Shown piece after piece: positions 11,348-21,519 of a DNA stretch of 64,000 nucleotides. The stretch covers positions 24,266 to 88,265 of the forward strand of contig JAPFCR010000032.1 of the NCBI GenBank assembly GCA_026169375.1, read 5' to 3'. The stretch is from Sporosarcina sp. (GTDB lineage: Bacteria; Bacillota; Bacilli; Bacillales_A; Planococcaceae). Every line of letters starts with the position of its first letter. Positions within the stretch are counted from its first letter, which is position 1. Under the pieces are notes generated by a model. The model was not told the DNA's origin. It ran no database searches and worked only from the letters and a program-made list of their open reading frames with translations. Position numbers and translations under genes: made by a program.

Positions 11348-12394
11348 ATGAAAAAAGGACATTGGAATGCAATTACAGACGTACCCGGTGTAAAGGTAGG
11401 GCATGTTACACTCGATGAGAAACTAGGCAATGGTAAAGTTGCTTGCACAGGAGTTACAGCTATTTTACCGCATGACGGAAATGTATTTGAACAAAAAGTA
11501 CCTGCGGCAAGCTTTGTTTTAAATGGTTTTGGGAAAACAGTCGGGCTTGTTCAAGTCGATGAACTTGGTGTCATTGAATCACCAGTAATGCTGACGAATA
11601 CATTTAGTGTAGCCCAAGTATTACAAGGTACACTTGCATACATGCTCGAGCAAAATCCAACGATTGGTGACTCGACAAGCTCATTAAATATCGTTGTCGG
11701 GGAATGTAATGACAGTTATTTAAATTCAATGAGAGCAATGCACATACAACCAACGCATGCGATTGAAGCGATTGAAAAAGCAGCAGATGGATCTATTGAA
11801 CAAGGGGCAGTTGGTGCTGGTAAAGGGATGATTTGTTATGAAGTGAAAGGCGGAATCGGTTCTTCTTCTCGAGTCGTGACTCATGAAAAGAATATTTTTA
11901 CAGTTGGTGTGCTGACATTGACGAACTTTGGAAAAGCAACCGAATGCAAAATAAATGAATGGCTGATGGAAAATGGTTTCGCGCAATATGAAGCAACTTT
12001 CCCTAAAAAAGAAGATGTTGAAAAACCAGATGGCTCTGTTATGATCGTTGTCGCAACGGATGCATCCGTCAATGAACGCCAATTAAAACGATTCGCTAAA
12101 CGTGCAGCCATTGGACTTGGCCGAACGGGAACTACGATACATAATGGAAGTGGAGATCTCATTATCGCCTTTTCAAATGGCTATACAATCCCACATTATT
12201 CAAAAAATAGTACTGAAACAAATACCATTTTACGTGATGATCATCCGATTATGAATGACTTATTCCAAGCAACAGTCGAAGCAACTGAAGAAGCTGTCTA
12301 TCAATCGCTTCTTCATGCAAAAACAACAAGAGGAAGAGAAAAACGAGTAATTGAGGAGTGCCTGCTCATCTCAAAAAACAGCGAGAACCTCTAG
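11348..12394 (+). CDS. P1/S58 (DmpA-like) aminopeptidase
   Basis: ITDVPGVKVGH, NGFGK, GAVGAGKG and DGS cleavage/nucleophile motifs. Confidence 0.9.
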   Translation: MKKGHWNAITDVPGVKVGHVTLDEKLGNGKVACTGVTAILPHDGNVFEQKVPAASFVLNGFGKTVGLVQVDELGVIESPVMLTNTFSVAQVLQGTLAYMLEQNPTIGDSTSSLNIVVGECNDSYLNSMRAMHIQPTHAIEAIEKAADGSIEQGAVGAGKGMICYEVKGGIGSSSRVVTHEKNIFTVGVLTLTNFGKATECKINEWLMENGFAQYEATFPKKEDVEKPDGSVMIVVATDASVNERQLKRFAKRAAIGLGRTGTTIHNGSGDLIIAFSNGYTIPHYSKNSTETNTILRDDHPIMNDLFQATVEATEEAVYQSLLHAKTTRGREKRVIEECLLISKNSENL

Positions 12395-12410
12395 GTTCTC
12401 GCTGTTTTTT
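12373..12410. terminator. Bidirectional intrinsic terminator
   Basis: AAAAAACAGCGAGAACCT...AGGTTCTCGCTGTTTTTT. Confidence 0.85.
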
Positions 12411-14768
12411 CTACTCAGTAACTAACTTTAATATGTGCCCATCTTCTATTTTCCCAACTAAAACAGACTCATAAAAATGCCCATCCACCCAATCATCGAC
12501 TGCACTATGATACCACTTTGATTTTATATGACCGCTCTGACTTGGCGCAACAATCTGGTGAGTTGAAGATAAATCTTCCAGATCAGCAACAAATCGCCAC
12601 GGCGCACCGTGGTTTACTGTTCCATCCTTTTTAAAAGCAGCCGCTTGCACTGTAATATTTGATCCACCAAGCTCTCGTTTTTCCGGCTCCAAAAACTTTT
12701 CAAAAATTGCAGATGCACTTGATAGTGGATGCGGAAAAGTCACTTGGTGATAGTCTCCCCAACGCCATTTACTTATATCTTCTCCAAAGGTTGCCATCGT
12801 ATTTTCAACTGATTGTTCAAAAGCATCGAAAACCCATTCATCAATTCCGCCGTATGCACTTACCCATTCTCCTGGATTTTTTGCATAGCCATCTCTAAGC
12901 ATCTGATCTGTAATCTGTCCTTTTCCAGGCATCATTGCATAGACATCCTTTGGTATTTCATCAGCAAACATGGTCGTTGGCAACTGTTTAATCCACTTAT
13001 GGAAAATTAACGGCGCTGCCTCGTCGACTTCGTCAAACTGGTTCCAATCCTCTAAAACAGTCATAAACGCTTCATATTTCCCCTCTGAATCTTTCACTTG
13101 AACTGAACGGATCATATTCGGTAAAAATTCCCGTGCATATAAGTTTTTCTGATCCATTTGTAATGCCATCATATCATCAGCGGTAAACGCATCGCCTGTT
13201 TCCAACACTTCCGCAATTCTTTCATATCGATAAGGTTGTGCCCAAAACTTCGTAATATGGTACGGGTATTCATCCCCAACAACTTCATTATTCGCCGTGG
13301 CAATAAACCCTTCTTTGGGATTCACAACGCGCGGAAGTTCGTCATAGGGAACATATCCTTCCCAACCATATTCAGAAGAATCTCCAGGTACGGGAAGTTG
13401 GCCATCCCCTTTTTTACGAAGTGGAATACGTCCATTCGCTTTATACGCTATCGTTCCGTCTTTTGAAGCAAACACAAAGCTTTGCGCAGGTGCATGGAAA
13501 TCTTCTAACCCTTTCTCAAAACCTTGCCAATCTGTTGCTTTGTTTATATTTAAAATTGCTTCTAACTCTTTTGTCGGCTCAAGTGCAGTCCATTGCATAG
13601 AAAACAGTGCATCTGGATCTTCCTCTTTATAAAGAATGTCTGAAACAATCGGTCCGTGACGCGTCACAACGACTTCAAACGGAATGTCTTCCCCGTCTTT
13701 CACATGAATCGTCTCATCTCTTACTTGGGCTTTCTCCCACTTCCCATCATACAAAAACTCTGCAGGATCATCTGGATTCGGTTGTTCAATATATAAATCT
13801 TGCACATCTGGACCTACATTCGTCACACCCCAAGCGATCTCTTCGTTATGCCCTAAAATAATGCCTGGCACTCCCGCAAAAATCACACCTCCAACATTTT
13901 GTTCAGGCGATTGTAAGTGCATCTGATACCAAATCGAAGGGGTATTTAACCCAAGATGTGGATCATCAGCTAGTAATGGGAAACCGCTTTTTGTTTTCTC
14001 CCCGGCAACTACCCAGTTGTTACTTCCATTGAATTCAGGCGGCAATAAACTAGCATCAAATCTTCCTGCAACTTGAACAGGCGTCTTTAAGTTTGCCTCA
14101 ATAATAGAAGGTGAATTATCAGGGTATTCAATAAATAATTCTTTTGCTTTTTCTTCTTCAAAATGATTTAGCGCCCAGTGTCTTACCGCAAGCGTATCCC
14201 AATGCCCACCTAAGTCATAAGCCATGAACTTTCCAATCGTCAGCGAATCTATCGCTGTCCACGGTTCGGGTGTATAGCCTAATAGTTTAAATTCATAAGG
14301 CAGTTTACTAGATGCGGTTGCTTCTTCAATAAACGCATTCACACCTTCAGAAAACAAATCAAGTACTTCTTTGGCTTCAGTCCCGTATCCCTCGTAAGAA
14401 TCTTCTGCGGCGGCTCGTAAACTAAACGTCCGGAAATGTTTATCCGTATCCACTGCAGCTTCTCCAACAACTTCTGCAAGCCGACCGCTCGCTTGCCTTC
14501 GCGACATATCCATTTGAAAAATTCGGTCCTGCGCTTGCACATATCCTTGTGCCCTATAAAGATCAGCATCCGATCCCGCATCGATATGCGGGATGCCGTA
14601 TTCATCACGCGTCACAATGACTTCCGCATCTAAAATGGGTACCTTCACCTCTCCTTCGATAACTGGCTTTGATTTTCCAATATACATATTCAAAAAGACG
14701 ACTGCACAAATGAGCAAAACGCCAAGTACACCGACTCCCCATAATAAACCTTTCACCCAACGATTCAT
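12411..14768 (-). CDS. Penicillin acylase family (S45 Ntn-hydrolase), N-terminal membrane anchor
   Basis: RDEYGIPHI, AQGYVQAQDR and beta-subunit start SNNWVV; DPHL motif. Confidence 0.92.
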   Translation of the reverse strand: MNRWVKGLLWGVGVLGVLLICAVVFLNMYIGKSKPVIEGEVKVPILDAEVIVTRDEYGIPHIDAGSDADLYRAQGYVQAQDRIFQMDMSRRQASGRLAEVVGEAAVDTDKHFRTFSLRAAAEDSYEGYGTEAKEVLDLFSEGVNAFIEEATASSKLPYEFKLLGYTPEPWTAIDSLTIGKFMAYDLGGHWDTLAVRHWALNHFEEEKAKELFIEYPDNSPSIIEANLKTPVQVAGRFDASLLPPEFNGSNNWVVAGEKTKSGFPLLADDPHLGLNTPSIWYQMHLQSPEQNVGGVIFAGVPGIILGHNEEIAWGVTNVGPDVQDLYIEQPNPDDPAEFLYDGKWEKAQVRDETIHVKDGEDIPFEVVVTRHGPIVSDILYKEEDPDALFSMQWTALEPTKELEAILNINKATDWQGFEKGLEDFHAPAQSFVFASKDGTIAYKANGRIPLRKKGDGQLPVPGDSSEYGWEGYVPYDELPRVVNPKEGFIATANNEVVGDEYPYHITKFWAQPYRYERIAEVLETGDAFTADDMMALQMDQKNLYAREFLPNMIRSVQVKDSEGKYEAFMTVLEDWNQFDEVDEAAPLIFHKWIKQLPTTMFADEIPKDVYAMMPGKGQITDQMLRDGYAKNPGEWVSAYGGIDEWVFDAFEQSVENTMATFGEDISKWRWGDYHQVTFPHPLSSASAIFEKFLEPEKRELGGSNITVQAAAFKKDGTVNHGAPWRFVADLEDLSSTHQIVAPSQSGHIKSKWYHSAVDDWVDGHFYESVLVGKIEDGHILKLVTE

Positions 14769-14839
14769 AAAACCCCTCCTATCATTCTCACTATTCTATC
14801 AACCTCTGTTAAATTCCTTTTTCATCTAAATTTCACGAT

Positions 14840-14875
14840 AAAAAAAGATGCAAACCAATTTTGATTTGCATCTTT
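14840..14875 (-). terminator. Intrinsic terminator downstream of hemH
   Basis: AAAGATGCAAA...TTTGCATCTTT with A-tract (U-tract on minus strand). Confidence 0.75.
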
Positions 14876-14902
14876 ACTATATGAAATAATACTGTTTTCA
14901 AT

Positions 14903-15835
14903 TTATAGTTGATTCAGGACAACCTTTGCTAATGTTTCGATAAATAACGGGTCTGTATTTGGCATTTTTGGACGGTAATAATTTGCGCCCACTTCATCAC
15001 AGACAACTTTACATTCATAATCATTGTCATACAACACTTCTAAATGATCGGAAACAAAGCCAACTGGTGTATAGACGAAGCTTTCATAGCCTTTTTCAGC
15101 ATGTAAATCACGTGTTAAATCTTGTACATCTGGACCTAACCACGGATCTGGTGTATTACCTTCACTTTGCCATCCAATCTCATATTGAGTAATGCCAGCT
15201 CCTTTAGCAATCAGCCTTGCCGTTTCAGCGAGTTGTTCAGGGTATGGGTCGTTGTCTTGTAAAATCTTTTCAGGAAGACTATGAGCCGATACGATTAAGA
15301 CAGCTTTTTTTCGCTCTTCTTCTGACATGGTTGCATAGGTTTCTTTAATATTATTAACCCAAAACTCAATGAATCCAGGGGCATCGTACCAATCTTCGAC
15401 TGAATAAAGTTTAATGCCGTATTGATCAGCGCTTTCTTTCGCTCGACTGTTATATCCTTTAATACTAAAAGTAGAATAATGCGGTGCTAACACTAATGTT
15501 ACTGCTTCTGTAATGCCCTTTTCATCCATTTCTGCAACCGCATCTTCGATAAATGGATGAATATGTCTTAAACCGATAAATAGTTCAAACTCATACGTGT
15601 CTTGCATGTCATTCAATTTCTCAGTAATGGCATTTGCTTGCTCTTCTGTAATACGCGCTAACGGGGAGATTCCACCAATTGCATTGTAGCGATCTTTAAG
15701 ATCTTGAAGCGCTTCTTCTGATGGTTTACGCCCGTGACGAATATGTGTGTAATACGGTTCAATATCCTCTTCTTTATACGGTGTTCCGTATGCCATTACT
15801 AGTAAGCCGATTTTTTTCTTATCCATCTTATCCAC
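14903..15835 (-). CDS. hemH: Coproporphyrin ferrochelatase (HemH/CpfC)
   Basis: MAYGTP, SAHSLP (catalytic His), WQSEG and [10 protein letters not shown] motifs. Confidence 0.95.
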
Positions 15836-15898
15836 CTCATAATAGTCGTTTTATTATATTTCTAAGTGAATGTCCTGACCACTTGTATACCAATCTTT

Positions 15899-16708
15899 TT
15901 AATTACGCGGAACATCTTTTATTTTACTCTCTACTAAACCTGTCGCTGTAAATGTTGGAATCCCGTCTTCTTTAATGATATTTGCATGAACCGAAAATAC
16001 TTCTCGAAATAATGCTTCATTCATCACTTCGGTTGGGACCCCACTTTTCACAACTTCTCCGTCTTTCATCACGATTAAATAATCACTATATTTCGCCGCC
16101 TGGTTAATATCGTGTAACACCATCACAATTGTCATATCTAATTTCTCATTTAAATACCGGACTAATTCCATCACTTCTAGCTGATGGGAAATATCTAAAT
16201 AAGTTGTTGGTTCATCTAATAGTAAAATATCTGGAGACTGCACAACAGCCATCGCAATCCATGCTCGCTGACGCTCCCCACCCGATAACTGTTGAATAGG
16301 CTTATCTTCCAAATGCTTTAAATTCGTAATTGAAATTGCCCAATCGATTGTATTAAAATCTTCTGTTGTCAGTTTTTCATACCACTTTCGGTGTGGAAGA
16401 CGTCCATGTGAGATTAGTTCTCGGACAGTTAAATCCAAATCATTATTTTGTACTTGAGAAAGCATCGTCATTTTTTTAGCCAGTGCCTTAGCTTTCATCG
16501 CGGATACTGATTGATCGTTAATCACAACAATTCCTTGATCCGGTTTAATTAAATTGGTCAGTACTTTTAAAAATGTCGACTTCCCTGACCCATTCGGTCC
16601 GATAATACTCGTCACCTGCTGTGGTGGAAACTGTAAAGAAATCCCTTCCAATGAAAACGTTGGTGACTGTTTGTAAACAATATTTTCAGCTGTTAGTTTT
16701 TGTGTCAA
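15899..16708 (-). CDS. Iron-chelate/tetrapyrrole ABC transporter ATP-binding protein
   Basis: Walker A GPNGSGKST, LSGGERQRAW, DEPTTYLD. Confidence 0.92.
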   Translation of the reverse strand: MTQKLTAENIVYKQSPTFSLEGISLQFPPQQVTSIIGPNGSGKSTFLKVLTNLIKPDQGIVVINDQSVSAMKAKALAKKMTMLSQVQNNDLDLTVRELISHGRLPHRKWYEKLTTEDFNTIDWAISITNLKHLEDKPIQQLSGGERQRAWIAMAVVQSPDILLLDEPTTYLDISHQLEVMELVRYLNEKLDMTIVMVLHDINQAAKYSDYLIVMKDGEVVKSGVPTEVMNEALFREVFSVHANIIKEDGIPTFTATGLVESKIKDVPRN

Positions 16709-16724
16709 GATTGATCACCCTTGT

Positions 16725-17705
16725 TTACTCTTTTGCAATGCTTTCTAATTCTTCATGTAAATAATCTAAAGAGTCGATGATTCGAGATCCAGGGTTCGCA
16801 CCGAATAAGTCATTTGGCAAACCAATAAAATGATCTTCTTGTACTGCTTGTATATTTCCCCATGCAGGATTTTGTTCCATTTCTTTTGTAAATGCCGCAA
16901 CCGTTTCTTCATAAGGTCCAGCTGTAATAAAGAAAATGACTTCTGGATCCGCTTCAACAATTTTTTCCATATCTAATTGTGCGTATTGCGGAAACCTTTC
17001 TAGTTTCTCATAGTCTTCTGCGATATTATAACCACCTACTGCATCCAGCATATTTCCTGATAGCGAGTCAGGTAGTGCCACCATCCAGTTTCCTGCAGAA
17101 CCAAAAATAATTAATGTTCTTAGTTTGTCTGCTTCATCTTGGTTAGCTTGGTCTGACGCTTCTTCAATATTTTTTATAAGTTCAGCTGCGTTCTCTTCCT
17201 TTTGTACAAGTTTACCAAGAATTTCAATGGACTCTTTCACTTCATCAATCGAATTGGCACCCATTTGTACTACGCCTATTCCTAACTCCTCTAATGCTGG
17301 AATTACATCCTTATTTAACTGTGGGTGTGCAATCACAACATCTGGTCGTAAACTAGCAATTTTTTCGACATTTACATCGTTCGACGTTCCTACTTCGGGG
17401 ATTTCTTCGATTTCTTCACGCATATTCCCCCGAATCACTGGCCTACCTACAGCCGTTTCACCTAAATCATAAAGTGTATTTAAATCTCCAGCTGTTAATG
17501 AGACAATTCGTTCCGGAGCAGCTTCTAATTCCACTTTATTTCCTTGTAAATCTGTCAGTGAAATCCCGCTATTTTCTTCACTTTCTGATTGCGTTTCATT
17601 TTGATCTGTTTCTTTGTTTTCTTTATTTGCATTGTCATTTCCACAAGCCGCTACGATTAAAAGCAAACTTAACATGAGTAACGTCAATGATAATTTCTTT
17701 TTCAA
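16725..17705 (-). CDS. Class III substrate-binding lipoprotein (IsdE/BtuF-like fold)
   Basis: Lipobox VAAC; PERIVSL, NVEKIASLRPDVVI and MEKIVEADPEVI repeats; C-terminal layout resembles IsdE. Confidence 0.85.
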   Translation of the reverse strand: MKKKLSLTLLMLSLLLIVAACGNDNANKENKETDQNETQSESEENSGISLTDLQGNKVELEAAPERIVSLTAGDLNTLYDLGETAVGRPVIRGNMREEIEEIPEVGTSNDVNVEKIASLRPDVVIAHPQLNKDVIPALEELGIGVVQMGANSIDEVKESIEILGKLVQKEENAAELIKNIEEASDQANQDEADKLRTLIIFGSAGNWMVALPDSLSGNMLDAVGGYNIAEDYEKLERFPQYAQLDMEKIVEADPEVIFFITAGPYEETVAAFTKEMEQNPAWGNIQAVQEDHFIGLPNDLFGANPGSRIIDSLDYLHEELESIAKE

Positions 17706-17722
17706 TTTTCTTTCCTCCCAAA

Positions 17723-18781
17723 TTACATTACTTTTCCTTTTCGTAATAAATATAAAAAGAATGGCGCACCTAATACCGCTAACAAAACACCGACTGGCAA
17801 TTCAATTGGCTCAAACCAACTTCTCGCTGCTGTATCCGCAAATATCACTAAAGCGCCGCCTAATAGAGCAGATGTAGGCAATAAATATTTATAATCATTC
17901 CCAATCAAAAGTCGAACCATATGCGGTACAACTAACCCTACAAACCCTAATAAACCGGCCACACTCACCGCAGCACCTGCTAAGAACGTACTTAACAACA
18001 GTAATAATAAACGATGCTTTTCTACATTATACCCGAGCAACTTTGCTACATCGTCGCCTAAGCGAAGAATATTCACAGACCGCGATGCAAAAAGGGATAA
18101 AACAAGTCCAATCACTGCATAAGGAAGAATGATTTTTAAATGTGGCCAACTTTTCCCACTAAGACCGCCCATTAACCAAGACAAAACAGTTTGTACTTTA
18201 TCGCTATATACAATCATAACGCCAGACGTAATGGCGCCTAAAAATGTATTAATGGCTACCCCCGCAAGTATTAACCGTAAAGGTGCCACACCACCATTCC
18301 ACGCCAATCCATAGACAAGAGCTGCTGCTATAAAAGCACCGATGAATGCACCGATTGGAACAAGCCCAGTATAAGCAGGAAAGATAAGCATTGTAGAAAC
18401 AGCGACTAATCCTGCACCAGAAGAAACTCCGATAATCCCTGGATCTGCTAATGGATTACGCATGATTCCTTGTAAGATTCCGCCAGAAACCGCAAGACAC
18501 ATTCCTACTAACAGACCTGTCAATAGTCGTGGTAAGCGTAAATTCCAAACAATTTGGTGCTCTATCGTCCCTTCTTCTCCAAAAATGCCATTAAGTACTT
18601 CACTCACAGTGAGCGTGACAGATCCCGTTGCAAGTCCATAAATGAGCGATATAATCACTAGCAAAAAGCAACCGACTAAAAGGAATATTCTATTTCTTCC
18701 AACCGAATCACTTTTAGCGTCTTCACCTTTTGCATGTTCATCGATCAGATCCACCTCATTCTTTTTGTCAAACGTTTTCAT
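17723..18781 (-). CDS. FecCD-family ABC permease
   Basis: LRLPR, RNPLADPGIIG and GFVGLVVPH motifs; likely start MKTF behind GGAGG (track start 18796). Confidence 0.92.
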   Translation of the reverse strand: MKTFDKKNEVDLIDEHAKGEDAKSDSVGRNRIFLLVGCFLLVIISLIYGLATGSVTLTVSEVLNGIFGEEGTIEHQIVWNLRLPRLLTGLLVGMCLAVSGGILQGIMRNPLADPGIIGVSSGAGLVAVSTMLIFPAYTGLVPIGAFIGAFIAAALVYGLAWNGGVAPLRLILAGVAINTFLGAITSGVMIVYSDKVQTVLSWLMGGLSGKSWPHLKIILPYAVIGLVLSLFASRSVNILRLGDDVAKLLGYNVEKHRLLLLLLSTFLAGAAVSVAGLLGFVGLVVPHMVRLLIGNDYKYLLPTSALLGGALVIFADTAARSWFEPIELPVGVLLAVLGAPFFLYLLRKGKVM

Positions 18782-18957
18782 ACATATATCCTCCACCCAA
18801 AACTTCTTCCCTTTTCATCAGAAGGAGCTTTGGTATTACTACTGACTTCTTATCATACTTTGTACTCATTCAATAATCCTATTCTTTAGAATCCTCTAAT
18901 CAGCGCATTTTTTCCTTCTCTATACAAAATCCTTACGCCTACGATTGCTTGAATTTT

Positions 18958-19704
18958 TCATTCATTCTCAAAAAATGATTCAAGCGCTTCTTTTGATAAA
19001 TAATGCCCAACGTAAAACGGACCATAATCCGTGTACTTAGCATGCACCTCATCAAACCGACTATCAGACAGCAGTTTTTTAAATTGCATTGGATCATCAC
19101 AAAATAAAGAGACGCCCCATTCATAGTCATCAAAGCCAATCGATCCGGTGACTATTCTCTTCACATCTTTTGAGTAAGGTTTGACGGTGTCAATATGATC
19201 ATACATTATACGTCCACGTTCTGCCTTAGAGAGAGCATACCAGTTATTCACTTCTCCTCTTTGCTTACGCATCGGATAAAAACATATATGCGCCTCTTTT
19301 GGAATTTCCGGATACAACTTTGCACGCATCACTGGGTCTTCATAAGGATTTGTCTCAAGTTTCGTATATGTACTTTTTTCAATGACTGATACATATGAAT
19401 AGGCTGGTTTCGTAAAATGCGCAAGCGCAGTTTTATTCCAAGCTGTTTCTAACTGATTTAACTCTTTCATTGTTGGGCGTAAAAACATCATAAGAAAATC
19501 TGCTTTCTGGCCAAGTATCGAATAAATCGCATGACTTCCTTCTTCACGATCTTCAGTCCTTTGCCAACCGTCAATCATATCATAAAGTTCTTTAAGCGCT
19601 GCCAAACGATGATCTTCTGAAGCACATGCCCACTTTTCCCAATCAAAAGTACGAAAATCATGTAAAGCGTACCACCCGTCGAACGTTTCTACTTTTCCTG
19701 ACAT
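18958..19704 (-). CDS. ChdC/HemQ-like heme protein, divergent paralog with distal Arg (Cld/ChdC/DyP superfamily)
   Basis: DGWYALHDFR, GQKADF, CFYPM, NNWY and GFDDYEWGV motifs; Tyr143, Lys147, His170 present; Arg183 where ChdC has Gln. Confidence 0.85.
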   Translation of the reverse strand: MSGKVETFDGWYALHDFRTFDWEKWACASEDHRLAALKELYDMIDGWQRTEDREEGSHAIYSILGQKADFLMMFLRPTMKELNQLETAWNKTALAHFTKPAYSYVSVIEKSTYTKLETNPYEDPVMRAKLYPEIPKEAHICFYPMRKQRGEVNNWYALSKAERGRIMYDHIDTVKPYSKDVKRIVTGSIGFDDYEWGVSLFCDDPMQFKKLLSDSRFDEVHAKYTDYGPFYVGHYLSKEALESFFENE

Positions 19705-20060
19705 TTCAAGTATTCCTCCCTTTCTCTAATTCATTTTTTCCTTTTGGTTTTTATTAAGCTATTCCACGCCTGTTTTCAGTAAGACAGGCGCGTGAATAAC
19801 TAAATAACAATCCACGACCCGGCACTGATTCAAAAACAATTGAGTATCTTTCTCCAAAATGCCATAACTTTTATTATACTCCATTAATTGCGTTGTTTCT
19901 TTGAATTTATCGACATTTTTGTGACTTGTTATGTTAATGATAATATTCTCTTTAGGACCAAATTCGATAATATTGTGAAGTTCACTTCAAAAATATTAAT
20001 TTATGCTATAGTATTTTAAGATATATTAAAATACACACAACAAGGAGAGATTAATTCATC

Positions 20061-20810
20061 ATGGCAGAAGCTGTTGAAACAATGGATGGTTGGTATGTAT
20101 TACACGATTTACGAAAAGTCGATTGGACGAAGTGGAATAAGGCATCTGTAGAAGAAAGAAATGCTGCATTAAAACAATTCAAAGAGCATTATCTTGCATG
20201 GGATGAAAACGAGAAAAAAGAGGAAGGATCCTTTGGTATCTTTCATATTGTTGGCCAAAAAGCCGATCTTATGTTTACACTTTTAAGACCGACATTAGAA
20301 GAAATTCTCGATGCAGAAACTGCATTAAATAAATCTGCTTTAGCAGAGTTTCTGATTCCTACTGACTCTTATATGTCTGTTGTCGAGTTGTCAAAATATC
20401 GTCCCGACCAAGACGGCATAGACCCAGAAACATTACCTGAAACTCAAAAAAGACTTAAACCAATACTTGAAAAATGGGAGTATGTCTCTTTTTATCCGAT
20501 GAGTCGAAAGCGCGAGGGCGAAGACAATTGGTATACATTAGAAAAGAGTAAACGTGGAAAATTATTATATGAACATAGCATTACTGGAAGAAAATATACC
20601 GGAGAAGTGAAGCAAATTATTACAGGGTCAACTGGTTTCGATGAGTGGGAATGGGGCGTTACATTATTTGCCCATGATTACTTACAGTTGAAGAAAATCG
20701 TTTATGAAATGCGCTATGATACGGCGACTGCACGATATGGCCTATTTGGTGACTTCTACACTGGAAAGACACTCACATTTGAAACACTCGAAGAAATGAT
20801 GCACGTCTAA
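20061..20810 (+). CDS. hemQ: Coproheme decarboxylase (ChdC/HemQ) homolog
   Basis: DGWYVLHD, SFYPM, DNWY, HSITGRKY, VKQIITGS and VYEMRYD motifs; RBS AAGGAG. Confidence 0.85.
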   Translation: MAEAVETMDGWYVLHDLRKVDWTKWNKASVEERNAALKQFKEHYLAWDENEKKEEGSFGIFHIVGQKADLMFTLLRPTLEEILDAETALNKSALAEFLIPTDSYMSVVELSKYRPDQDGIDPETLPETQKRLKPILEKWEYVSFYPMSRKREGEDNWYTLEKSKRGKLLYEHSITGRKYTGEVKQIITGSTGFDEWEWGVTLFAHDYLQLKKIVYEMRYDTATARYGLFGDFYTGKTLTFETLEEMMHV

Positions 20811-20812
20811 AT

Positions 20813-20856
20813 AAAAAAGCATCTTTTTGCCAATTAAAACAAAAAGATGCTTTTAT
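20813..20856. terminator. Bidirectional intrinsic terminator
   Basis: AAAAAAGCATCTTTT...AAAAGATGCTTTTT between hemQ and mnhG. Confidence 0.8.
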
Positions 20857-20885
20857 TTATTATTTAAAACTAATTATACAAAGAT

Positions 20886-21257
20886 TCAAGATTCATCCTC
20901 TTTCTTGTCTCCATGCAATACTTCATACAAATCATCTGTCCCTGAAATATCCGCTAACTCTACTTTCGAACGATAAGCTGCCCGTACGAGTAAATGTCCC
21001 GCAACAGGTGCTGTTAGAAAAACAAACACAATTCCTAGTAACAAACGAACACTAATGAAATTGTCCTTCGTCCAAAAGTAAACAAAAGCCCCGAGTAAGG
21101 TTAACAAAACAGCAAGCGTTGAACTTTTCGTCGCAGCATGTGACCTCGTGTACACATCTGGCAATCGAATGAGCCCAAAAACACTAATCACGCTCATAAT
21201 ACCGCCTGTTAAAATGAACAATGCACCTATAAATTCACCGATTGCGCTTACGTTCAA
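20886..21257 (-). CDS. mnhG: Na+/H+ antiporter subunit G
   Basis: RLPDVYTRSHAATK, LTAPV; operon position. Confidence 0.92.
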   Translation of the reverse strand: MNVSAIGEFIGALFILTGGIMSVISVFGLIRLPDVYTRSHAATKSSTLAVLLTLLGAFVYFWTKDNFISVRLLLGIVFVFLTAPVAGHLLVRAAYRSKVELADISGTDDLYEVLHGDKKEDES

Positions 21258-21519
21258 CGACAACCCCCCTCAAAATATACTTCGAATAAGCAATCGTTCC
21301 GATAAAAGATAAAATCCCCAAAATTAAAATCGCTTCTAAAAAAGCTCTCGTATTCATTAACACAGAAATCACGGCGATTGACGCAATTATATTAACCCCA
21401 ATGACATCGAGTGCTAATACACGGTCTGGCAGAGATGGCCCGAGAACAATTCGCAGAACAGCAATTAAAATCGCAATTGAAATTAAAATAATTGATGTCA
21501 CTAACATCGCTTTAATCAT
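21235..21519 (-). CDS. mnhF: Na+/H+ antiporter subunit F
   Basis: GPSLPDRVLALD motif. Confidence 0.92.
   Translation of the reverse strand: MIKAMLVTSIILISIAILIAVLRIVLGPSLPDRVLALDVIGVNIIASIAVISVLMNTRAFLEAILILGILSFIGTIAYSKYILRGVVVERKRNR

Follow-up and report, generated by a model that had tools for sequence, protein, structure and literature searches.

In a 64,000-nucleotide stretch of a Sporosarcina sp. genome (GenBank assembly GCA_026169375.1, contig JAPFCR010000032.1, positions 24,266 to 88,265; hereafter the window), the genes of a type II ATP-binding cassette (ABC) importer are joined to those of the coproporphyrin ferrochelatase CpfC (hemH) and of two ChdC proteins, and there is about an even chance that the locus is a cassette for finishing heme from porphyrin. 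The importer belongs to a clade whose substrate-binding protein (SBP) has neither of the residues that coordinate iron in IsdE. We put at roughly one half the probability that a heme-type ABC importer has been retargeted here to metal-free porphyrin, most likely coproporphyrin III, which would feed CpfC and then ChdC. On the minus strand the order is chdC-A, FecCD permease, lipoprotein SBP, ATPase and hemH, closed by a terminator, with chdC-B divergent (Table 1); this layout of six genes, proposed earlier in a sequence-only reading made without database searches, was borne out by open reading frame listing and family scans. With permease, SBP and ATPase in adjacent genes, the transporter has the composition of a type II (FecCD/BtuCD-like) ABC importer. 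The source assembly (G000) comprises 2.87 Mb, is 90% complete and is placed by GTDB in the genus Sporosarcina, and its closest relative is the genome G018, 'uncultured Sporosarcina sp.'.

A substrate-binding protein without the iron ligands of IsdE

The closest solved relatives of the SBP, by sequence as well as by predicted fold, are Staphylococcus aureus IsdE (2Q8P) and Listeria Lmo2184 (5JOQ). Its best NCBIfam match is IsdE (TIGR03659) with 151 bits, which is below the equivalog level (cut-off 298.65), and the BtuF model gave 59 bits (cut-off 234). The N-terminus ends in a lipobox (...VAAC), the Cys of which is invariant in 19 orthologues. The AlphaFold2 model (pLDDT 85) predicts a bilobed fold with the single long connecting helix of class III SBPs, and 5JOQ and 2Q8P were the top Foldseek hits (TM 0.82).

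In the alignment to these two structures, the columns of IsdE Met78 and His229 are occupied by Asn (GTSND) and Ala (ITAG), and the same residues were obtained for the window protein on re-test. All of the 13 orthologues aligned together with 9 paralogues lack a ligand at both columns, with Asn (once Ile) at the first and Pro or Ala at the second. Paralogues of 35-42% identity carry His at both positions, and a paralogue of 29% identity carries Met/His like IsdE. The orthologues (49-82% identity) came nearly all from Logan metagenome assemblies, the named genomes being those of Cytobacillus, Fredinandcohnia and Paenibacillus, and the paralogues (29-42% identity) came from other Sporosarcina, Halalkalibacter and Paenibacillus. 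In the tree, the ligand-less SBPs form one clade (support 100/99) nested within the His/His paralogues. This clade is rare, being found in 2 of 370 family genomes and, by a contig scan of 185,579 species, in six species besides G000; the scan of metagenome contigs yielded one further locus only, a duplicate of a known context. A His that is invariant in the clade and specific to it lies where an N-lobe strand ends, in an AHPQLN loop.

Tetrapyrrole enzymes beside the transporter

The gene order in the ligand-less clade is always permease-SBP-ATPase, and a tetrapyrrole enzyme is directly adjacent on the same strand in 16 of the 17 assessable orthologue contexts. The partner is CpfC in seven contexts (downstream in G000, G018, L057, L083, L058 and L086, upstream in L087), a radical SAM/SPASM protein of family TIGR04053 with 377 residues in four (L041-43, L044-45, L056/L082 and L084-85), and a set of ChlI, ChlD and a BchH/CobN-like chelatase of about 1250 residues in five (L046, Cytobacillus solani, C. 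massiliigabonensis, C. praedii and Fredinandcohnia quinoae), so that 12 of the 16 partners are chelatases; the context from Paenibacillus sanfengchensis has no tetrapyrrole partner. A dedicated clade of ChdC proteins, ChdC-B, accompanies five of the seven CpfC contexts. The arrangement of the window is not a chance neighbourhood: G018 and four metagenome contigs (L057, L083, L058 and L086) have it as well. Conservation of the transporter together with hemH and chdC, which the sequence-only reading had put forward for checking, was confirmed, and throughout the orthologue clade the genes linked to the transporter encode enzymes with coproporphyrin III or coproheme as substrate, or enzymes that metallate porphyrins.

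The heme-type paralogues present a different picture. CpfC, TIGR04053 and ChlI-ChlD-ChlH partners were found in none of the 14 paralogue loci within 10 kb, and an ABM/IsdG-like monooxygenase follows the ATPase in 12 of the 14, mostly preceded by a small ankyrin-like gene. A paralogue layout that ends in an oxygenase is the classical arrangement for extracting iron from heme. At the base of the clade, therefore, both iron ligands disappear at the point where, on the sequences compared, heme-degrading partners give way to heme-making ones. The operon of other Sporosarcina consists of SBP (His/His), permease, ATPase, a 157-residue ankyrin-repeat-like protein and the ABM/IsdG-like monooxygenase (L031:9362-12950; also L030, L032, L033 and L035-L039); the small ankyrin-like gene is kept at 55-66% identity, and its role is not obvious.

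The TIGR04053 proteins scored 507-524 bits (cut-off 395), with AhbD heme b synthase as the second-best family, and the comparison of loci singles them out as candidates for the oxygen-independent coproheme decarboxylase. That enzyme was still unknown in Bacillaceae in 2024 (PMC10965808), and a radical-SAM review refers to an 'AhbD-like step' in the coproporphyrin pathway. The genes lie at L041:9854-10987, L044:8928-10061, L056:4109-5242 and L084:637-1770, and another at L102:7980-9221. A TIGR04053 gene is also present elsewhere in the genome in all five named transporter-carrying genomes, and the copy of Paenibacillus sanfengchensis and the 3' end of hemY (CgoX) overlap. In the radical-SAM branch, genes for DUF2249 proteins, a TusA-like protein, a membrane protein with faint similarity to COX1 and FeS_assembly_P lie 5' of the cassette (L056:1846-3872, L084:82-381), which may hint at low-oxygen or nitrosative use.

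The ChlI-ChlD-ChlH sets stand directly after the transporter (L046:3991-10564, L048:11830-18442, L050, L051 and L052) in non-phototrophic bacilli (Cytobacillus and Fredinandcohnia), where the comparison flags a chelatase that is otherwise unexplained. A regulator of the Crp/Fnr family is divergent in these contexts, a ferrochelatase-like gene follows in one of them, and all the subunits fall below the NCBIfam cut-offs for Mg- and Co-chelatases.

The only ferrochelatase of the genome

The hemH gene of the window is the only ferrochelatase gene in the G000 assembly, and chdC-A and chdC-B are its only two genes of the Chlor_dismutase family. The remaining pathway is encoded on a different contig (C28:82805-91467) by a single fused cluster, hemA-hemX-hemC-hemD-hemB-hemL-hemE-hemY, in which no hemH separates hemE from hemY, and G018 has the same fused cluster with hemE and hemY adjacent and without hemH. 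Each of 85 other Sporosarcina species genomes contains exactly one hemH, which is located within hemE-hemH-hemY in all five whose neighbourhoods were read. The gene beside the transporter is, then, the housekeeping enzyme moved into a transporter operon and not a spare. The sequence-only reading had described it as a stand-alone ferrochelatase and had suggested looking for a separate hemEHY operon and a canonical chdC elsewhere in the genome; neither is there, as hemE-hemY lacks hemH and no canonical ChdC is encoded in the assembled 90%. It had also held that its proposal would be refuted if these were the only copies and the transporter were not conserved beside them: they are the only copies, and the transporter is clearly co-conserved. 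A second, salvage-dedicated hemH was accordingly rejected, since G000 and all other Sporosarcina genomes have a single ferrochelatase each, and so was a heme auxotroph with terminal steps only, hemAXCDBL, hemE and hemY all being present.

In the trees, the cassette hemH clade falls outside every other hemH of the family, but the hemE genes of G000 and G018 diverge just as far. The idea that hemH alone is foreign was therefore not upheld, and the trees cannot tell relocation of hemH from its replacement. The long branches of hemE and hemH outside the rest of the family suggest that the heme genes of the G000/G018 lineage were reshuffled or replaced. A second hemA-hemL pair is located on another G000 contig (C45:62196-64830; 45% and 68% identical).

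The CpfC protein, a ferrochelatase of the Firmicute subfamily, gave 499 bits against Bacillus subtilis CpfC (1AK1). The alignment to 1AK1 shows that the catalytic His183 and Glu264 are kept (motifs SAHSLP and DHLE), as are all five residues (two Arg, two Tyr and a Ser) by which the four propionates of coproporphyrin are bound, which speaks for the import proposal; Lys87 is changed to Arg and Arg31 to His; the roles of these residues in B. subtilis CpfC, including the binding of propionates p2, p4, p6 and p7, have been described (PMC7340540). Family membership, together with the presence of CgoX (hemY) and ChdC, suggests that the enzyme prefers coproporphyrin III.

Two divergent ChdC proteins

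ChdC-A and ChdC-B both score above the cut-off of NF008913, the hydrogen-peroxide-dependent heme synthase, and with only 45% identity between them they are not products of a recent duplication. Residues were read from the alignment to the Geobacillus and Listeria ChdCs, in which Lys151 (YPMxK) and the distal Gln187 make up the Firmicute signature. Both proteins keep the catalytic Tyr (Lm Tyr147) and the proximal His (Lm His174). ChdC-A, of a large 'distal Arg' clade, also keeps the Lys of YPMxK and has Arg in place of the distal Gln; ChdC-B, of the transporter-linked clade, keeps the distal Gln and has Arg in place of the Lys (YPMxR), a change common to all four members of its clade. The substitutions in both window proteins were recovered on re-test. 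ChdC-B shares 87% identity with its counterpart in G018 and 71% with that in L058, but only 46-50% with canonical Sporosarcina ChdCs. Other Sporosarcina species have one canonical ChdC each, those compared being 71-97% identical to one another, and G018 has a canonical ChdC in addition to its ChdC-B orthologue; the assembled part of G000 encodes two divergent paralogues instead of the genus-type protein.

As a candidate chlorite dismutase ChdC-A has the distal Arg, but it scores as a ChdC, finds ChdCs as its best matches in the PDB (283 bits to 1T0T) and falls in a large ChdC-like clade of Bacillaceae. A KRI[IV]TG motif is found in 77 of its best 120 homologues. The distal-Arg clade of ChdC-like proteins, with an Arg of the chlorite-dismutase type, is seemingly uncharacterised and occurs widely in Virgibacillus, Lentibacillus and Neobacillus; of the two genes of the Chlor_dismutase family in Virgibacillus doumboii, one is of the distal-Arg type. 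The gene context of a distal-Arg ChdC in Virgibacillus was uninformative.

Locus features and transcription signals

Table 1. Features of the transporter-heme locus (window coordinates)
Feature	Coordinates	Strand	Evidence
Terminator-like hairpin closing the operon, 3' of hemH	14844..14875	-	14 pairs and a T-run
hemH, coproporphyrin ferrochelatase CpfC	14903..15835	-	PF00762 291 bits; NF009095 552 bits (cut-off 455)
Promoter-like site TGGTCA-17-TATAAT in the ATPase-hemH gap	15853..15881	-	Consensus match only, 10/12 positions
ABC ATPase, FecE/heme-type	15899..16708	-	PF00005 115 bits; FecE and heme ATPase NCBIfam models best, all below equivalog cut-offs
Class III substrate-binding lipoprotein, IsdE-like fold	16725..17705	-	PF01497 (Peripla_BP_2) 139 bits
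FecCD-family permease, type II ABC importer	17723..18796	-	PF01032 340 bits
Spacer between chdC-A and permease, 162 nucleotides	18797..18957	-	Hairpin just 5' of the ribosome-binding site, z = -2.15
chdC-A, 'distal Arg' ChdC paralogue	18958..19704	-	NF008913 316 bits (cut-off 253)
Divergent promoter region between chdC-A and chdC-B	19705..20060		Sequence and alignments
chdC-B, transporter-linked ChdC clade	20061..20810	+	NF008913 322 bits (cut-off 253)
Bidirectional terminator between chdC-B and the convergent mrp/mnh operon	20815..20854		Hairpin prediction

No terminator hairpin was predicted inside the five-gene string, including the 162-bp gap between chdC-A and the permease and the 63-bp gap between ATPase and hemH, for which the sequence-only reading had likewise seen none. 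The transporter operon and hemH are presumably co-transcribed, and hemH may also have a promoter of its own, to judge from the promoter-like site in that gap. The 162-nucleotide spacer has no Rfam match.

The divergent region shares sequence blocks with L057, L083 and G018. It contains a minus-strand TATAAT (19873-19878), which aligns with the promoter block of these three relatives, and an extended -10 element (TGcTATAGT) for chdC-B at about 20004-20012. The relatives lack chdC-A and their intergenic region is continuous; in G000, chdC-A with about 160 bp on each side stands in for the promoter-proximal part of it. The alignment of the TATAAT with the relatives' promoter block makes chdC-A probably the first gene of the operon now, inserted downstream of the ancestral operon promoter.

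Alignment of four loci gave conserved blocks and no recognisable operator. Fur/iron control of the operon was rejected, as no Fur box with at most 3 mismatches was found in 18797-20060 and matches across the window were no commoner than chance. Control by a riboswitch, or a B12 system, was rejected as well: at E <= 1, Rfam gave nothing for 14000-21500, and eight related loci had no hit that reached the gathering score. Between the predicted promoter and chdC-A, the leader contains a GC-rich inverted repeat (19766-19795, stem CGCCTGT/ACAGGCG) with no U-run after it on either strand. Adjoining hemH at 11348-14768 are a gene of the penicillin-amidase family (785 residues) and a divergent S58 peptidase gene; the pair occupies the same position in L057 and L083 (81-84% identity) and has no apparent link to the heme genes.

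Proposed mechanism and alternative explanations

Gene identities, copy numbers, the loss of ligands and the conserved linkage are direct observations; from them we infer what the ligand is, which way the flux runs, that the genes are co-transcribed and which of the ChdC proteins acts. The type II importer would descend from heme-binding IsdE/HupD-like systems, with an SBP that has neither iron-coordinating residue, and would take up metal-free porphyrin, most likely coproporphyrin III. CpfC, presumably co-transcribed, would insert Fe2+ to give coproheme, and a ChdC paralogue encoded at the locus would decarboxylate coproheme to heme b. That an IsdE-like heme ABC importer was retargeted and fused to heme-finishing enzymes in this way has, in our estimate, a probability of about one half. 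Coproporphyrin III is the most economical candidate for the cargo, because CpfC acts on it directly and the product is the substrate of ChdC and of AhbD-type enzymes. A chelatase partner is sensible only if the cargo arrives metal-free, and the chelatases among the partners (12/16) therefore favour a metal-free cargo. The ChlI-ChlD-ChlH triads argue for insertion of metal rather than removal, because both AAA+ subunits are present, whereas the CobN-like HmuS works without ATP or ChlI/ChlD; a dechelatase like HmuS, which needs neither subunit, was for this reason considered unlikely for the Cytobacillus branch.

Bacteria with the coproporphyrin-dependent pathway excrete coproporphyrin III. Because the genome makes coproporphyrin III itself and CpfC is its sole ferrochelatase, the cassette would serve both de novo synthesis and the recapture or scavenging of external porphyrin, and with hemAXCDBL-hemE-hemY present the import would be supplementary, not obligatory. 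The sequence-only reading had proposed import of coproporphyrin (or coproheme) and its conversion to heme; the co-conserved linkage and the ligand loss speak for that import, and the part that fell is a hemH dedicated to salvage, in a genome with a de novo pathway. It had not recognised the route as one already described, and in the literature searched we likewise found no bacterial coproporphyrin or coproheme importer. If the proposal is true, it adds a salvage or cross-feeding branch to the heme metabolism of Gram-positive bacteria, explains why the sole ferrochelatase was moved beside a transporter, and makes the loss of two ligand residues a mark of cargo change in IsdE-like binding proteins.

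A broader proposal is more tentative, and we hold its probability to be somewhat short of one half. The clade would represent the first system in bacteria that is dedicated to the uptake of free-base coproporphyrin III, built in interchangeable cassettes in which the importer is combined with CpfC/ChdC (aerobic finishing), with the AhbD-like TIGR04053 protein (oxygen-independent finishing) or with an ATP-driven class I chelatase. Communities in soil and sediment would then share and recycle excreted coproporphyrin as a heme precursor, and the coproporphyrin-dependent pathway would have in TIGR04053 its missing oxygen-independent coproheme decarboxylase.

Several points weigh against the retargeting proposal. 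All of the support is comparative; the complete de novo pathway leaves no auxotrophy that would demand import, and the position of the sole-copy hemH could reflect co-regulation rather than substrate channelling. The orthologue of Paenibacillus sanfengchensis stands without a tetrapyrrole neighbour, and the contexts are phylogenetically clustered, so that there are perhaps 4-5 independent associations, not 16. We know of no role for a class I chelatase with coproporphyrin. The cargo could be coproporphyrin III, protoporphyrin IX or another porphyrin, and the clade-specific His of the SBP could be an alternative metal ligand.

Each of the alternatives that we weighed explains fewer of the observations, namely the ligand loss, the chelatase partners, the absent Fur box and riboswitch, and the recurrence across divergent branches. 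The transporter could be an ordinary hemin importer, its SBP binding heme without canonical axial ligands and its genes placed with hemH and chdC under one 'heme demand' signal. The nearest characterised relatives of the SBP bind heme, the sister paralogues are clearly heme-uptake systems, the clade-specific His could ligate iron, and cross-talk between ChdC and heme uptake has been reported in mycobacteria (PMC12962153); but the two ligands went in a single loss at the base of the clade, just where the IsdG-like oxygenase was exchanged for chelatases and coproheme decarboxylases, and imported heme needs no ferrochelatase, ChlI-ChlD-ChlH chelatase or coproheme decarboxylase, which makes this explanation unlikely. 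Rather unlikely, too, is a metallated tetrapyrrole other than heme, either coproheme or a Zn- or Cu-coproporphyrin metallophore, on which ChdC or the AhbD-like enzyme would act directly or whose metal would be exchanged after import. It would suit the four contexts in which the AhbD-like radical SAM protein, with coproheme as its expected substrate, is the sole partner, and the ChdC paralogues dedicated to the cassette; absent axial ligands and the chelatase linkage nonetheless favour a metal-free cargo, and no zinc- or copper-related genes were seen near the transporter.

Import of an iron chelate or siderophore, supplying the ferrochelatase and Fe-S enzymes, is improbable in our view: FecCD/Peripla_BP_2 systems commonly carry siderophores, FecE is the best model for the ATPase and the route of iron to CpfC is an open question (PMC10991733), yet the SBP clade is nested in heme-type SBPs and not among siderophore binders, there is no Fur box upstream, and the ChlI-ChlD-ChlH chelatase and the coproheme-type radical SAM protein would be left unexplained. 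We rate lowest the absence of any functional link, by which a rearrangement in a lineage with reshuffled heme genes would have placed an importer of unrelated cargo, such as a corrinoid, beside hemH by accident. The whole heme gene set is indeed rearranged and divergent in G000 and G018, and the clade is rare among the family genomes. However, the hemH linkage recurs in SBP lineages that are only 50%, 62% and 74-100% identical and in differing gene orders, with hemH lying upstream of the transporter in L087 and downstream of it in the other cases, two other sets of tetrapyrrole enzymes are linked in other branches, and a cobalamin riboswitch is absent from nine loci.

Comparison with known systems

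The transporter resembles the IsdDEF/IsdE importer of S. aureus and the Lmo2184 importer in being a type II ABC system with a class III lipoprotein SBP, the fold (TM 0.82) and the best PDB and NCBIfam matches being theirs. It differs from IsdE in that Met78 and His229 are replaced, the score is half the equivalog cut-off, and its partners make heme, whereas IsdG/I degrade it. Its closest paralogues are in the His/His operon of other Sporosarcina, Halalkalibacter and Paenibacillus (35-42% identity in the SBP and 51-58% in the permease), and the ligand-less clade arose from within this group. That operon has the order SBP-permease-ATPase, His at both columns and an IsdG/HmoA-like oxygenase in 12 of the 14 loci, and the His/His heme-uptake system was not found in G000.

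CpfC and ChdC are recognisable members of the coproporphyrin-dependent pathway (hemE-hemH-hemY with an unlinked chdC/hemQ), and hemE, hemY and hemAXCDBL are present as that pathway would have them. Unlike the norm of the pathway, hemH has left hemE-hemH-hemY and is joined to an importer, and there are two divergent ChdC paralogues. The Cytobacillus branch resembles the Hmu system of Bacteroidota, in which an uptake system for heme or porphyrin is linked to a protein of the CobN/ChlH family; HmuS, the CobN-like dechelatase, removes iron and needs neither ATP nor ChlI/ChlD partners (PMC12583661), whereas the Bacillota loci encode the full ChlI-ChlD-ChlH triad. Like BtuFCD, finally, the transporter is a type II importer, and its SBP, as does that of BtuFCD, would bind a tetrapyrrole to which it contributes no axial ligand; it differs in its weak BtuF similarity, in having no cobalamin riboswitch and in its neighbours, which are enzymes of heme and not of cobalamin metabolism.

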